Assembly: GCA_050950505.1 (NCBI GenBank)
Contig: JBMNHS010000001.1
Coordinates: 608,001-672,000, forward strand
DNA from: Candidatus Methanomethylophilaceae archaeon
GTDB taxonomy: Archaea; Thermoplasmatota; Thermoplasmata; Methanomassiliicoccales; Methanomethylophilaceae
Direction: 5' to 3'
DNA length: 64,000 nucleotides
Both the position numbers and the translations under genes were made by a program. Within the stretch, counting starts at the first letter, position 1; each line of letters starts with the position of its first letter. Of the stretch, positions 4,357 through 11,391 are shown piece by piece. The notes under the pieces are model-generated. The model had not been told where the DNA came from. It did not search any database and saw only the letters and a program-made list of their open reading frames with translations.

Positions 4357-5100
4357 ATGACAGAGAATAACACAAATGATTTCGTACTGTACTATACAGA
4401 GAAGGGCCTGATTCACGTTTCCAATGAAGTACGCATACAGATTCTGGATGAGCTTACCGAGAGAAGCCTGTCGTTGACCGATCTTGTGAAAATCACAGGC
4501 AAAGCACAATCAACGCTTTCCGTTCATCTGGACAAAATGATGAAAGACGGCATCATCGATGTCAAAGAGGACCCTGAAGACAGCCGCAGAAAAACATACA
4601 GTATCGTTTCTCTCTGTCTTGTGCGCACGACGAAACCCGATCCCGAATCCTTTGAGAAAGCAAAAGAACTTTTCAATGAAATATCCGACGATCCGAAAAG
4701 CGTAGGGGCTCACATGACAAGTCTCATAGTTTTGTCCTTGGATTACCTGGGATTGTCGGTTATGCCTTTGGCCGAAACTCTGGGCAAGATTCACGCCCAG
4801 GTGTTGCATGAGAGCATGACGAAAGGTCCGGTGGACGACGTGATCGACAATCTCATCGACATGTACTCTTACGCCAACTTGGGAGAAGTCACGGTATTCA
4901 AACGCAACCCGTTGACACTTGTCGTAAAATCCGATATGAGAGTAAGCAAAGGCGCGGCAAAGTCCTTCGGTATGTACGCCAGAGGTTTCTTTATCCAGGC
5001 CCTGAACATAATATACGGAGTGGAAGCGGAAGTCCCCCGTTGGGAAGTTTTCGGTGCCGACAACAATTATTACAAATTCGAATTGGACGTCAGGCAGTGA
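4357..5100 (+). CDS. ArsR-type wHTH transcriptional regulator with V4R-like C-terminal domain
   Basis: HTH segment SLTDLVKITGKAQSTLSVHLDKM followed by DSRRK; C-terminal V4R-like region. Confidence 0.8.
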   Translation: MTENNTNDFVLYYTEKGLIHVSNEVRIQILDELTERSLSLTDLVKITGKAQSTLSVHLDKMMKDGIIDVKEDPEDSRRKTYSIVSLCLVRTTKPDPESFEKAKELFNEISDDPKSVGAHMTSLIVLSLDYLGLSVMPLAETLGKIHAQVLHESMTKGPVDDVIDNLIDMYSYANLGEVTVFKRNPLTLVVKSDMRVSKGAAKSFGMYARGFFIQALNIIYGVEAEVPRWEVFGADNNYYKFELDVRQ

Positions 5101-6894: not shown

Positions 6895-6981
6895 GCAATA
6901 GGGGGTAAACGTTCGGTTCTATTAAAGATAAGGGTGTCTTTCCGCGTTGTTTTAATACTACCGCAGTGTTGCATGTCGCAC

Positions 6982-7057
6982 GGGCCCGTGGTCTAGTGGT
7001 TATGACGTCGCCCTTACAAGGCGAAGATCGTTGGTTCAATCCCGACCGGGCCCACCA
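6982..7057 (+). tRNA. tRNA-Val(TAC) with encoded CCA
   Basis: GGGCCCG...CGGGCCC-A-CCA; anticodon arm TCGCC-CT-TAC-AA-GGCGA; TATA-like TTTAATA at 6951. Confidence 0.96.
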
Positions 7058-7099
7058 CGTTGTTTCTGGACGTCTTCGAATCTTTGCATCTGTTCTAAA

Positions 7100-7390
7100 A
7101 TGGATGGATGACATCTCCATATGCGGAGATTTATCGATTTTCGCTTGAATTTCGCGATTTTTATCATCAGATTTTTCAGGATATTTTCTGCGTGTACAAT
7201 ACAATTATATATTAAGTGATAGATGGATGGATGATATGTCCATGAATAGGGCATAGCCGGGAGCCAACTGTTTCGGTTTCTCCTCCTTCCGACTCCCGGT
7301 TAAATCTTTATCATGTTTATTTTGACGCGATTTGAACTGTCAGTTTAAAAACTTATAAATAGTCAGAAAATGGATGGATGATACGTCCAT
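7100..7390. repeat. three copies of 21-bp dyad ATGGATGGATGAYAYSTCCAT (7100-7120, 7223-7243, 7370-7390)
   Basis: ATGGATGGATGACATCTCCAT / ATGGATGGATGATATGTCCAT / ATGGATGGATGATACGTCCAT read directly. Confidence 0.9.
7235..7320 (+). ncRNA. putative small RNA (hairpin with CTCCTCC loop); ends approximate
   Basis: TATA TTATATAT at 7205; stem GCCGGGAG/CTCCCGGT (7256-7300); T-rich tail. Confidence 0.35.
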
Positions 7391-7480
7391 AAAAGATGCC
7401 GCCGAGGATATATCGCTCACCAAATTTCTACTCTTAACCCTCGGCGGCTGTATATTGGGCGAAGGCAATGAATTTTTTCG
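7383..7480 (+). ncRNA. putative small RNA (hairpin with CTCACC loop); ends approximate
   Basis: BRE/TATA AAAAAC-TTATAAAT at 7347-7360; perfect 10-bp stem GCCGCCGAGG/CCTCGGCGGC (7398-7448); T6 tract near 7473. Confidence 0.35.
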
Positions 7481-7522
7481 ATGAAAATCATACAGTATTT
7501 CCAGTGTACGAACGGAATAAAA

Positions 7523-7599
7523 TGGTGGACCCGGCCGGATTTGAACCGGCGACCTTCGCCGTGTGAAGGCGACGTCATAACCAACTAGACCACGAGTCC
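7523..7599 (-). tRNA. tRNA-Val(CAC) with encoded CCA
   Basis: GGACTCG...CGGGTCC-A-CCA; anticodon arm TCGCC-TT-CAC-AC-GGCGA. Confidence 0.96.
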
Positions 7600-7683
7600 T
7601 GTACCGTAGCAATATAATGACTGTATTTAACGCTCGCGCATACCAGGAACAAAGATTAACATAAGCAACCCCTTACCGCGGAT

Positions 7684-9075
7684 ATGCCCGAATCCGACCG
7701 CATTCAGCAGAATGCCGAAAATAAGAAACTCTTCTCCAGAGAGTTCGATGTGATTTTGTCCACAGAGAAAACGGGATACCCGAGCTTCATCGGCGGCCTC
7801 CAAGTGGCCTCAGGCATGGATTATCAATTATCCAGTCCGATAGACGAAAGTATAATTTTCGGCAAATTCCAACGTCCTGAGGAAGGAACCGCCGCATATG
7901 CGGTCGAGGCGGCCAAGAAAGCCTTTGAGGTTTGGTCCGCAACGGAACCTTCGGAACGTGCAGCGATATTTGAAAACGTCCTTGAAAGGGTAAAGGCCAG
8001 AAAATTCAGGCTTGCGGCCTGCATTGCAATCAGCACGGGAATGGTAATGGAAGACTGTATCAACGAATCCGATCGGCTGATTGAGATAATCGAAGATGCC
8101 TGTGCCACTGCGGAACGTACCGAGCCTCTCGGAGTCTGGGGGATAATCTCCGAACACAATTCATCTCTGGCGTCCCCTGCCGGTGCGGCGGTTTACGCCA
8201 TGCTTGCCGGAAACACCGTTGTCGCGCTTCCCGCCAAGGGCTGCCCCATGCCCATGTTCATGTTCAGTGATATTCTCCGCGCCGTCGGAGTGCCCGACGG
8301 AGTATTCAACATACTGACTTCGGAAAGTCATGAAACGGACATGGAAATCAGCGAAGATCCGATTGTCAGGGGAATCGCCGTCTCCGGGGGCGGAGACAGA
8401 ATAGACGAACTTATGTTCCTTCCCGTGGATCATGAACTCAGGTTCGTAAGCGAAATAAAAGGAATGAATCCGATTCTCGTTCATAAAACCGGAAATATGG
8501 AAGCAGTTGCAGACAGCATAGCCGAATCCGCGTTCAGAAGCGCGGGTCAGAGACTGTATTCCTGTTCCAAAGTCATTGTAATCGAATCCGAAAAAAGAAA
8601 TCTTCTTTCCGCTTTGAAAGAATCCGTCAAATCCCTTGTGGTCGGTGATCCCGCGGAACTGGAAGCGGACGTGGGTCCGCTGATGTCAAAAACCGATCTT
8701 CTCAGATTCCAGAAACTTATGGAAAATCATTCCGATATGGTTATTCTTGGAGGAAAGAGGGTGCGGGGAGAATTCCTTGATGGGGGCAGTTATGTGGAAC
8801 CCGCCGTTGTGGAGGTGTCTTACGCCGAATGCGAACTTGGAAGTTATGACATGGGATTGCCGATTCTGGCAATTGTATCTGTTTCCGACGAAGATGAAAT
8901 GTTCGAAGAATTGCTGAGCACCGAATGCGGACTGTCCGCTTCCCTGTTCACCGATGACGGCAAACTCATCGAAAGATTCAAAGAAGAAGCGGAAGCCACC
9001 GTCCTCAATATTAACAAAGGGACGGAAAACACGCTTCCGGCATCCACTCTGAGCATAGAGAAATTCAGTGCCTGA
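7684..9075 (+). CDS. aldehyde dehydrogenase family protein (P5C dehydrogenase-like), catalytic Cys replaced
   Basis: EPLGVWGIISEHN, AGNTVV, GVPDGVFN and SAFRSAGQRL motifs. Confidence 0.82.
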   Translation: MPESDRIQQNAENKKLFSREFDVILSTEKTGYPSFIGGLQVASGMDYQLSSPIDESIIFGKFQRPEEGTAAYAVEAAKKAFEVWSATEPSERAAIFENVLERVKARKFRLAACIAISTGMVMEDCINESDRLIEIIEDACATAERTEPLGVWGIISEHNSSLASPAGAAVYAMLAGNTVVALPAKGCPMPMFMFSDILRAVGVPDGVFNILTSESHETDMEISEDPIVRGIAVSGGGDRIDELMFLPVDHELRFVSEIKGMNPILVHKTGNMEAVADSIAESAFRSAGQRLYSCSKVIVIESEKRNLLSALKESVKSLVVGDPAELEADVGPLMSKTDLLRFQKLMENHSDMVILGGKRVRGEFLDGGSYVEPAVVEVSYAECELGSYDMGLPILAIVSVSDEDEMFEELLSTECGLSASLFTDDGKLIERFKEEAEATVLNINKGTENTLPASTLSIEKFSA

Positions 9076-9843: not shown

Positions 9844-11391
9844 ATGACTAAAATGACTGTCCGTTTCTTCCCTGCCGGGAAAGTTGTGGAGTTGGACGAA
9901 GTTCGCAAAATTTCTCAGGCGGCGGAGTTGGCAGGTGTTAAAATAACGTTGCCCTGCAACGGCAGAGGCCGTTGCGGACGTTGCGGAGTATACATCACAC
10001 AAACACCGGAGGACGGCAGTGAACCGAACCTCACGGGCATGGAGAGAGTGCTGGCATGCAGGCACGACATCACCGGAGACATCGACGTTTTCGTCCCCTT
10101 GGATGAATATGGCCGCATAGTCGCCGGAGAAGATCAAAGAAAAGTCTATGACGGCGAGATAGTGCCCATAGTAAAAGCGAAAGGCAAGACCCAGCTGGGA
10201 CTCGCCGTCGATTTGGGAACCGCCGCAATCGCGGTCAGTATCCTGGATCTCAAAACCGGATTCGAATTGTATTCAACGGTGGGGGACAATCCGCAGTCCT
10301 TCGCGGGTGACGATCTCGAATCCAGAAAAGCATATGCCGATGAGAAAGGCGGAGACATCCTCAGAAAAGCGGCCATAGACAAAATCAATGATCTGATGTA
10401 CACCTTTGTCGGAGACCCGGACAATGTGAAAACCGCGGTTATTTCCGGTAAGCCCTATCTGATGGCGTCTCTGACCGAAGTTTGCAGCATGACCGGAGGT
10501 CCATTCTGCCTCGGCGGTTCCGAACTGGGTCTCGACATGGCCGAAGACGCCCCCACATTCTGTGTGAAAGAACTGTCCGAAGAAGTGGGCGGGGATTTGA
10601 TAGGCGGGATTCTCGCATGCGACATGGACTCCGCGGATGAAACGATTCTTCTGATCGATATCGGTTCAACGGTTCAACTGGCTCTCGGAAACAAAGAATC
10701 AATTCTGGTATGTTCGTCCGAATCCGGACCCGCTTTGGAAGGAGGTAACGTGATTTTTGGAATGACGCCCTCTATCGGAGCCATAGACAGCGTTCAGTTC
10801 AAACGCGGACGCATGAGTTATACCGTGATAGGCGGGACATCCCCGGCCGGAATCTGCGGTTCCGGGCTCATAGATTTGGTATCCGGGCTTTATGCAAGCG
10901 GTTTCATCGACATTGAAGGAAAATTCACCAAGAAAGCGAAAATCTTCGAATCCGAAAATGGAAAGGCCTTCGGAATAACTGACAGGATTTACGTTACCGA
11001 GGCGGACGTCGCCGCGGTCATGAGGGCCAAAGCCGCGGTATGTGCCGGAATCCTGACGTTGCTGAATGAAAGGGAAATGGTCATGGACGACATTTCGCGC
11101 ATAGTCCTGTCCGGAAGTTTCGGAATATTCATCAACGTGGACAACGCAATCGCTTTGGGCATGTTGCCGGAGATGGATCGGGACAGGTTCAACTTCCTGG
11201 GCAATGCTTCGATGACATATGCCAGAAACGCAATGCTTTCCGAAAATATAAGGGACAGGGCAGAAGCGGTCCGCGGCATAATCAATCCGATAAATTTCAG
11301 GGACGGCTCTTACGATGACGAATTCAAACTTGTGTATCCCATACCGGAAGACGGATCCTTCATTTCCAAGCTGAAGAGGAGGCTGCTTTAA
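9844..11391 (+). CDS. ASKHA/2Fe-2S corrinoid reductive activator (RACo/AcsV-like, DUF4445)
   Basis: N-terminal CNGRGRCGRC...LAC; DLGT, GPALEG, GICGSG and AIALGMLP motifs. Confidence 0.8.
   Translation: MTKMTVRFFPAGKVVELDEVRKISQAAELAGVKITLPCNGRGRCGRCGVYITQTPEDGSEPNLTGMERVLACRHDITGDIDVFVPLDEYGRIVAGEDQRKVYDGEIVPIVKAKGKTQLGLAVDLGTAAIAVSILDLKTGFELYSTVGDNPQSFAGDDLESRKAYADEKGGDILRKAAIDKINDLMYTFVGDPDNVKTAVISGKPYLMASLTEVCSMTGGPFCLGGSELGLDMAEDAPTFCVKELSEEVGGDLIGGILACDMDSADETILLIDIGSTVQLALGNKESILVCSSESGPALEGGNVIFGMTPSIGAIDSVQFKRGRMSYTVIGGTSPAGICGSGLIDLVSGLYASGFIDIEGKFTKKAKIFESENGKAFGITDRIYVTEADVAAVMRAKAAVCAGILTLLNEREMVMDDISRIVLSGSFGIFINVDNAIALGMLPEMDRDRFNFLGNASMTYARNAMLSENIRDRAEAVRGIINPINFRDGSYDDEFKLVYPIPEDGSFISKLKRRLL

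Follow-up and report, generated by a model that had tools for sequence, protein, structure and literature searches.

The DNA described here is a window of 64,000 nucleotides (the whole stretch that was analysed) from the genome of a Candidatus Methanomethylophilaceae archaeon (contig JBMNHS010000001.1, positions 608,001 to 672,000). This genome (G000) comprises 1.33 Mb in two contigs, with 49% GC and an estimated completeness of 99.6%; coordinates that start with C1 or C2 refer to its two contigs and all others to the window. Two convergent tRNA-Val genes border a cassette (C1:615100) in which a 21-bp dyad occurs three times. The left border is the gene with anticodon UAC (tac; 6982–7057, plus strand; 68.7 bits with the Rfam tRNA model) and the right border the gene with anticodon CAC (cac; 7523–7599, minus strand), both detected with ARAGORN and Rfam. 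We found that the dyads belong to units of a predicted small RNA family, and that the dyad itself is best read, by comparison between genomes, as a DNA operator common to a regulon.

The dyad pattern ATGGATGGATGAYAYSTCCAT is matched exactly on the plus strand at 7100–7120, 7223–7243 and 7370–7390, with spacings of 123 and 147 bp, as had been reported in an earlier, sequence-only reading of this DNA. It was matched in none of 100 dinucleotide-preserving shuffles, even when three mismatches were allowed. The TATA boxes that had been placed in front of copies 2 and 3 are present as well: TTATATAT (7205–7212, plus strand) begins 18 nt before copy 2 (ATGGATGGATGATATGTCCAT) and TTATAAAT (7353–7360, plus strand) begins 17 nt before copy 3 (ATGGATGGATGATACGTCCAT). 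The same holds for the GC-rich stems downstream of both copies and for the loop motifs CTCCTCC (7280–7286) and CTCACC (7416–7421). Copy 1 (ATGGATGGATGACATCTCCAT) has no TATA-like box in its upstream 25 nt.

From their comparison, the three units appear to differ in how much of the common gene they retain. Unit 2 is the canonical one. A small RNA of ~89 nt is predicted at 7235–7323 (plus strand; both ends are predictions), and it scores 95.2 bits (E-value 3e-15) with the covariance model described below. It folds into helix P1 (7236–7241 with 7249–7254), helix P2 of 8 bp (7256–7263 with 7293–7300) and the short helix P3 (7273–7276 with 7289–7292). The apical loop (UUUCUCCUCCUU, 7277–7288) includes CCUCC at 7282–7286, which has an unpaired probability of 0.99. 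The fold has a free energy of -26.2 kcal/mol (z-score -2.55), its 8-bp stem is the minimum-free-energy helix, and the T-rich tail ends in four T (7320–7323). Unit 3, predicted at 7383–7478 (plus strand; 34.4 bits, E-value 1e-3), is a divergent paralogue present only in this genome. Its P2 has 10 bp (7398–7407 with 7438–7447) and encloses a 30-nt loop (7408–7437), an outer helix joins 7384–7389 to 7456–7461, and six T stand at 7473–7478. The 10-bp stem is again the minimum-free-energy helix of the fold (-29.7 kcal/mol, z-score -3.06). Instead of CCUCC, the loop contains CUCACC; a search of 15 other species of the genus did not recover this loop, and CUCACC is kept nowhere else among them. Unit 1 is decayed, as the sequence-only reading had proposed, with the operator and a remnant of P1 left (7113–7130, plus strand). 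In this remnant ATCTCC (7113–7118) pairs with GGAGAT (7125–7130), so that the change relative to ATGTCC/GGRCAT of the other units is compensated on both sides. Unit 1 has no second stem, its fold (7111–7200) is no better than that of shuffled sequences (z = -1.30), and it scores 26 bits with the unit model (E-value 0.04).

The covariance model (R1) was built from 19 units. Strong units were found in 13 of the 15 other species of the genus, always in the spacer between the tRNA-Val genes and with one to three copies per genome. The two species that lack a strong unit are represented by genomes that are 72% and 76% complete, and one of them gives only a 26-bit match, at its mtaC operator. When R1 was applied to 150 other genomes of the order, all seven members of the genus were matched (7/7), with one weak match in 33 other genera; this lone match is an operator next to a tRNA gene in genome G081, without the CCUCC hairpin. 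In Rfam 15, only tRNAs pass the gathering score in the window. With E-values up to 10, the non-tRNA matches in 6950–7650 belong to unrelated bacterial and plastid families and stay far under gathering (36 versus 59 bits and 18 versus 80 bits). The modelling of Val-Val spacers and the Rfam search proposed in the sequence-only reading thus give a genus-wide family that has no Rfam match, in line with its suggestion of an undescribed RNA. We conclude that the units represent a small RNA family of ~90 nt (85–95 nt) that appears restricted to one genus of Candidatus Methanomethylophilaceae, and we infer that they are transcribed.

Support for the RNA comes from covariation in P2. We used a model-fitted alignment of 23 units (22 distinct rows); fitting to a structure favours the helix, but a MAFFT alignment already showed P2. 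Base pairs are possible in 96% of the P2 cells, five of the eight pairs have changed on both sides, and none of 500 shuffles reached the observed covariation or the observed paired share. When the partners were slid by one to three columns, only 37–52% of the cells paired. We take the plus strand to be the RNA strand because G-U pairs outnumber A-C pairs (17 versus 6), because a run of at least four T follows P2 in 16 of 23 units and because, in genomes with a single unit, nothing but antisense tRNA is located left of the TATA box.

The most conserved feature of the RNA is CCUCCUU, which is located either in an internal loop or in the apical loop that the short P3 closes. All 19 units in the first alignment have CCTCCTT without change, and it occurs in 22 of the 23 units, the exception being unit 3 of the window. 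The mean unpaired probability of the motif exceeds 0.7 in 17 of 21 units, and two of the four misses are due to another CCUCC, in the P2 arm, having been scored. The 16S rRNA of the organism ends in ...GGAUCACCUCCU, and CCUCCUU is identical to this 3' end. As the motif is kept, predicted to be unpaired and the same as the end of the 16S rRNA, the loop looks like the anti-Shine-Dalgarno (anti-SD) sequence, and its predicted-unpaired nucleotides are complementary to GGAGG Shine-Dalgarno (SD) sequences, as in RNAs of the sRNA41/sRNA154 type. Of the two anti-SD loops that had been proposed, the one in unit 2 is therefore a feature of the family, whereas CUCACC in unit 3 is not conserved.

Next to the RNA structure, the position of the dyad in promoters is informative. 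Counted back from the mature tRNA 5' end, the start of the best TATA-like 8-mer is 31–32 nt away in 30 of 33 distinct tRNA promoters of the genus, which agrees with the distance of ~31 nt between TATA box and start assumed in the sequence-only reading. For the small-RNA units of the genus, TATA boxes were located as the best TATA-like 8-mer within a restricted window, and this 8-mer starts 16–20 nt before the operator in 20 of 22 units. Combining the two distances places the predicted start at dyad positions 11–16, that is, at ~7235–7237 in copy 2 and at ~7383–7384 in copy 3. The dyad would thus straddle the start, as had been claimed, and by comparison it probably acts there as a protein operator.

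At mtaC, the best site ends 61–68 nt before the ATG in all 13 loci of the genus (12 of them score at least 15 with the weight matrix introduced below). In the mtaC promoter, the operator is followed ~8 nt on by the TATA box, and then by a short leader with a small hairpin and an SD of the GGAGG type. The operator is likewise upstream of the TATA box at the mtbC-like and mcrB loci of other genera. Just upstream of the TATA box is the usual place of archaeal activators. The dyad is asymmetric, and it has the same orientation and a near-equal spacing to the TATA box at the units and at mtaC, with the ATGGATGGAT half proximal to the TATA box in both. Only the direction of transcription differs between the unit-type and the mtaC-type TATA-operator modules.

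The dyad is not confined to the cassette. A scan of the whole 1.33-Mb genome, as had been suggested, yielded five dyad sites, compared to none with the reversed pattern. The fourth site (C1:1022952) lies between a ramA-type gene and mtaCB, and the fifth (C1:790009) directly before the ATG of a 320-aa protein whose gene is divergent from the gene for MCR component A2. With up to two mismatches, the dyad occurs in 26 of 41 Methanomassiliicoccales genomes (the window's genome included), with no match of the reversed control in any of them; within the genus it is present in 14 of 15 genomes. A symmetrised position weight matrix (PWM) from 25 distinct instances has the consensus ATGGATGTATCATACATCCAT, which is palindromic, with two half-sites of 10 nt each. 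With this matrix, six genomic sites score 23.6–32.6, above every shuffle maximum (15.2–22.9). These are the three cassette copies (25.1, 31.6 and 32.6 for copies 1, 2 and 3), the sites at C1:1022952 and C1:790009, and one flanked by cobD-cbiB and an ABC ATPase gene. Weaker sites, which are not significant by score alone, are found before a leaderless FecCD (BtuC-like) permease gene (19.8), near mtbC (15.7) and before a NifH/CfbC-like gene (12.5). In other genera, the dyad adjoins corrinoid-protein genes (seven loci), mcrB (two loci) and a NifH-NifD-like fusion (one locus). The assignments of the neighbouring genes were confirmed for MtaB, MtaC, RamA (TIGR04270, 711 bits) and MCR component A2 (TIGR03269, 713 bits), and also for CobD/CbiB, FecCD, the NifH family, McrB and the corrinoid proteins. 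This distribution suggests a methyl-corrinoid methanogenesis regulon with the dyad as its operator, which extends beyond the coordinates covered by the sequence-only reading and would be a larger result than the cassette itself.

Several of these loci have additional features. In genome G021, from another genus of the family, a gene that fuses a NifH-family domain to a nitrogenase-component-1-type domain starts 3 nt past the operator (L009:1525–3021, plus strand). The NifH-like gene in the genome of the window (C2:126732) is under the cut-offs for both nifH and CfbC. On the ramA side of the fourth operator (C1:1022860–1022972, minus strand), a P1-like hairpin is followed by a hairpin of 7–8 bp (z = -2.36), without CCUCC and without a T-run; this element could belong to a long leader of ramA or represent a further short RNA. 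The site in G081, which belongs to another genus (L043:1490–1560), is an operator-like dyad (ATGGATGGATGATTAATCCAA) near the tRNA gene whose 3' half pairs with a downstream TGGATTA, and it may represent a distinct RNA, likewise linked to the operator, of a neighbouring genus.

A candidate for the binding protein is encoded at the fifth site. The 320-aa protein (C1:789046–790008) contains a CggR_N/PH0730-like winged helix-turn-helix (wHTH; CggR_N with 36.7 bits at a cut-off of 30), DUF4443 and DUF2111 according to Pfam. Its residues 31–191 match PH0730 (PDB 2P8T; E-value 2.9e-9), and the N-terminal winged helix of CggR is matched with E-values of 4.5e-4 to 1e-3. Neither a SorC domain (Pfam) nor an NCBIfam match was found, and we do not assign the protein to the SorC/CggR family; its Atlas cluster has no label other than 'putative DUF2111 domain-containing protein'. 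DUF2111 was found in just two of 14 control genomes, both from methanogens (M. jannaschii and M. acetivorans). A palindrome scoring at least 15 is located directly upstream of 46 of the 63 loci that encode relatives of the regulator. In these 46 loci, the gap between palindrome and ATG is 0 nt in 33 and at most 7 nt in 44, and a TATA-like 8-mer begins 8–10 nt before the palindrome in 41. The distance from the start of the TATA box to the ATG of the regulator gene is 29–31 nt. As this equals the distance of 31–32 nt in the tRNA promoters, the regulator gene appears to be leaderless, with the palindrome filling the space between TATA box and start. This is the classic position of an archaeal autorepressor. 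The site thus combines dyad symmetry with a fixed position relative to the TATA box or the start at several promoters, including that of the regulator itself, as is typical of an autoregulated palindromic operator. Because the operator is shared by the regulon and is found above all at its own gene, the wHTH-DUF4443-DUF2111 protein is the likely binder of the dyad and would be autoregulated.

We consider it fairly probable, with considerable room left for the alternatives weighed below, that the cassette holds one small-RNA gene in three tandem copies, whose operator-controlled RNA masks SD sequences within a regulon that includes the wHTH-DUF4443-DUF2111 regulator. In outline this agrees with the sequence-only reading, of which the repression of the units and the blocking of ribosome-binding sites stay putative. 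Comparison between genomes speaks for this through conservation, promoter geometry, helix covariation and the invariant loop motif. An intact unit would consist of an archaeal TATA box, the 21-bp palindromic operator 16–20 nt on and over the start, a transcript of ~85–95 nt and an oligo-T stop. The RNA would start within the operator, whose 3' half would pair with the downstream GGRCAU to form P1 as a 5' hairpin. This hairpin would be followed by the long GC helix P2, capped by the short P3, with CCUCCUU displayed in the apical loop. The loop most likely pairs with SD sequences of the GGAGG type and would lower the translation of SD-led mRNAs. The regulon defined by the shared operator would comprise the methanol methyltransferase operon mtaCB, further corrinoid-protein genes, B12- and F430-related genes and the regulator gene. 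The sign of regulation would depend on placement. Where the operator lies between TATA box and start (the regulator gene and the small RNAs), a bound protein should block initiation, and its placement directly before the TATA box (mtaC, mtbC-like genes and mcrB) resembles that of an activator. Both components of the cassette, a transcription-factor site and a base-pairing small RNA, belong to known categories.

Several observations weigh against this explanation, most of all against its targets. The target prediction proposed in the sequence-only reading gave no significant result for the loops of the units. When the entire interior of unit 2 was used, the best-ranked matches were dominated by the GC-rich stem sequence and were uninformative. 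The 16-nt loop of unit 2 can form an 11-bp duplex over the SD in the ribosome-binding site (RBS) of mtaC, which ranks only 10th of 1138. The loop of unit 3 ranks first at the RBS of mtaB (-25.3 kcal/mol), yet nine of 60 shuffled loops do equally well somewhere in the genome. Cognate pairs of small RNA and mtaC in six genomes are no better than non-cognate pairs (-18.0 versus -16.9 kcal/mol). Moreover, only ~66 of 1138 crude gene starts have GGAGG upstream. Concerning the structure, P1 (the operator 3' half with the downstream GGRCAU) is 94% paired and nearly invariant in the genus, with almost no covariation support; compensated forms of P1 are found in unit 1 of the window (ATCTCC/GGAGAT) and at the G081 site (TAATCCA/TGGATTA). 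Concerning expression, contigs from four public RNA-type runs, compared with 6900–7700, matched the two tRNA genes only, with unlike flanks and from other organisms, and are thus uninformative for the spacer.

The regulon and its regulator face similar objections. The PWM instances were gathered with the dyad pattern itself, and shuffled sequence reaches 15–23 bits; as a consequence, it is by their position that the FecCD, mtbC and NifH-like sites are included. The mcrB gene of the window's genome has no operator (best score 1.5), and we do not claim mcr as a member of the regulon here. The binding protein is named from the position of the operator, and the genome encodes two shorter paralogues (C1:836961–837557 and C1:197992–198582) that match only residues 9–211 of the regulator, that is, the wHTH and DUF4443 without DUF2111. 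Such short paralogues occur in most of the 41 genomes of the order that were searched; in the window's genome, their positions are not among the operator matches of the PWM scan. The regulator is present in all 41 genomes, including 15 without the strict motif, and its co-occurrence with the motif is thus uninformative. A homodimer prediction with two copies of the regulator scored 0.29 against a mark of 0.42, which is evidence for neither side.

With respect to the targets, we made one further observation. The loop of unit 3 (7408–7437) is complementary over 9 + 8 bp to the surroundings of the GGUGA SD of mtaB (C1:1023776–1023835), a match that is not significant by energy alone. The mtaCB operon that holds this site itself carries the operator, and the second mtaB paralogue (C1:1027813) has a near-identical leader.

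Other explanations accept the conserved RNA or the operator and differ in what they do. The small RNA could be real and operator-controlled while CCUCCUU binds a protein, as a decoy for a factor of the 16S 3' end, or a single target other than an SD. This is possible, if unlikely; the lack of a significant or co-evolving mRNA target in our searches, the match of the loop to the 16S 3' end itself and the minority of GGAGG SDs would all be expected from it. Yet known RBS-masking RNAs are characterised by just such a loop, C-rich, unpaired and complementary to the SD (PMC5867862), and we found no candidate protein partner linked to the locus. It is distinctly less likely that the cassette consists of operator sites, serving as a sink for the binding protein or left over from duplications, combined with hairpin and T-run terminators of the convergent tRNA genes. 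Unit 1 is indeed reduced to its operator, copy number varies from one to three among species, a hairpin with a T-run resembles a terminator, and the contigs from RNA runs cover only the tRNA genes. However, an invariant loop motif of 7 nt and a TATA box at a set distance (16–20 nt) from the operator are both unnecessary for a terminator, and the stem here covaries around a fixed loop motif. Archaeal termination, furthermore, needs only oligo-T. We think it very unlikely that the units encode small plus-strand proteins (MDDMS...GPPPSDPR..., ~20–35 residues) from a leaderless or near-leaderless ATG in the operator, with the RNA structure being secondary. ATGs do occur at motif positions 5 and 14 in one frame, the organism uses leaderless starts, and in 12 of 22 full units the frame is open through the RNA, including the PPS(D) motif encoded by CCTCCTTCCGA, which also counts against our main explanation. 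Many of these 12 units are near-identical sequences, though, and premature stops are found in three of 22, including unit 2 of the window (after nine codons) and two species that are closely similar to open ones. Seven of 22 units read CCTCC in another frame although the nucleotide sequence and the helix are kept, and two-sided changes that preserve P2 are unexpected under coding constraint.

The sequence-only reading had itself offered two alternatives for the dyad. One of them takes it as an RNA hairpin at the 5' ends of transcripts (7-bp stem, GAUGAYA loop) and not as a DNA site. The 7-bp stem can form and shows G-U/G-C variation between the copies, but the calibrated TATA-to-start distance implies that the dyad is not transcribed at the regulator gene, where it fills the 21 nt between TATA box and leaderless ATG, or at mtaC, where it precedes the TATA box. 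Transcription of the small-RNA units is predicted to start within the dyad. In addition, the palindrome extends to half-sites of 10 nt, as expected for a dimeric DNA binder. We regard the hairpin as highly improbable. We give next to no credence to the other, that the dyads are minus-strand micropeptide genes (MEMSSIH.., MDISSIH.., MDVSSIH..), or to replication-origin boxes. Minus-strand frames with an ATG exist, but they are not the peptides of eight residues that had been described: they run for 12 and 16 codons in copies 2 and 3 and into the tRNA in copy 1. These frames of differing length share only the residues encoded by the dyad, and the same dyad stands at promoters of unrelated genes. 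The sequence-only reading had also named a match to a known element, such as origin boxes, as a possible outcome. Genes with Cdc6_C (Cdc6/Orc1) are located at C1:421989 and C2:49938, at least 193 kb from the cassette, and we rejected origin recognition boxes. An archaeal box C/D guide RNA was rejected as well, as none of the 24 RTGATGA matches of the window falls in 7082–7480 and the dyad has GGAUGAUA and not RUGAUGA.

Returning to the operator-controlled array of SD-masking RNAs, a bolder version can be formulated, which we regard as unlikely when taken as a whole. The regulator would be the master switch of methyl-reducing methanogenesis across the Methanomassiliicoccales. Bound directly before the TATA box, it would activate highly expressed genes with an SD (mtaCB, further corrinoid methyltransferase operons and, in some genera, mcr), and bound over the start it would repress leaderless genes and the small RNAs. 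In this genus, the RNAs would mimic the anti-SD of the 16S rRNA and shut off translation of precisely the SD-led mRNAs when the regulator is off, resulting in a double lock of protein and RNA that sets SD-led mRNAs apart from leaderless ones. The regulator might even choose the direction of the promoter, as the same asymmetric TATA-operator module serves both directions.

The closest known systems are sRNA41 and sRNA154 of Methanosarcina mazei. RBS-masking loops (loop 2 in sRNA154), by which they repress translation, are their established mode of action, the masked sites include RBSs inside polycistronic mRNAs of central methanogenic metabolism, and their expression is set by a transcriptional regulon (PMC5867862). 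The RNA described here resembles them in being an intergenic small RNA of a methanogen with a predicted-unpaired anti-RBS loop and control by a regulon, in our case as predicted from sequence. It differs in belonging to another order and to a methyl-corrinoid regulon with a palindromic operator, compared to the nitrogen regulon named in that text. Furthermore, it occurs in tandem copies between tRNA genes, and no relation in sequence emerged from the Rfam search. In the literature we searched, anti-SD small RNAs in methanogens were described only in M. mazei, and neither small RNAs nor a palindromic site of a regulator were linked there to the Methanomassiliicoccales. A functional parallel exists in Firmicutes, where unpaired C-rich motifs of RoxS/RsaE pair with the G-rich SDs of several metabolic mRNAs and a repressor site overlaps the start. 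Those RNAs are bacterial, carry CCCC and not CCUCC and have other regulators, so that the likeness is functional only.

The candidate regulator resembles PH0730 of Pyrococcus horikoshii and, in its winged helix, the N-terminal DNA-binding domain of CggR/SorC. Unlike PH0730 and the SorC regulators, it has an additional C-terminal DUF2111, and it lacks the sugar-binding domain of SorC. We found no published function or DNA site of PH0730 in the literature searched, and no paper there names DUF2111 or DUF4443. The Msr regulators of the methanol methyltransferase operons of Methanosarcina are dedicated transcription factors at mtaCB promoters. To our knowledge, no shared operator and no small RNA members are described. 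Both the Msr regulators and the candidate regulator are tied to mtaCB promoters, and they belong to different protein families.

Lastly, we analysed the surroundings of the cassette and the host. The order tRNA-Gly(ccc) on the minus strand, tRNA-Val(tac) on the plus strand, units and tRNA-Val(cac) on the minus strand is full in 11 of the 15 loci of relatives that were scanned. Neighbouring genes in the window at 9844–11388, 4357–5097 and 7684–9072 (all plus strand) include a second corrinoid activase of the RACo/RamA type, a helix-turn-helix (HTH) protein of the ArsR/MarR type and an aldehyde dehydrogenase, and none of these three has an operator match in the PWM scan. As the genome encodes MtaB, MtaC, a RamA-type corrinoid activase, MCR component A2 and a dimethylamine methyltransferase, the host is a methyl-reducing methanogen. 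The open reading frame of the dimethylamine methyltransferase (C1:14841–15914, minus strand; 357 aa) covers profile positions 2–353 of 463 and stops where pyrrolysine is expected. Such a truncation would be expected if an in-frame amber codon is read as pyrrolysine, and the cognate corrinoid protein MtbC adjoins. The spacer is also contained in public DNA runs, whose sources are digesters, bioreactors, wastewater and landfill.

In guts, rumen and digesters, the Methanomassiliicoccales are of major importance as methylotrophic methanogens, and the regulation of their methanogenesis is almost uncharted. The locus provides three testable objects, namely a 21-bp operator, a candidate regulator with two DUF domains and a small RNA family with an invariant anti-SD loop. 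If confirmed, the operator would allow the methanogenesis regulon to be read from the genomes of uncultured members, and the small RNAs would make this a second archaeal lineage with RBS-masking small RNAs.

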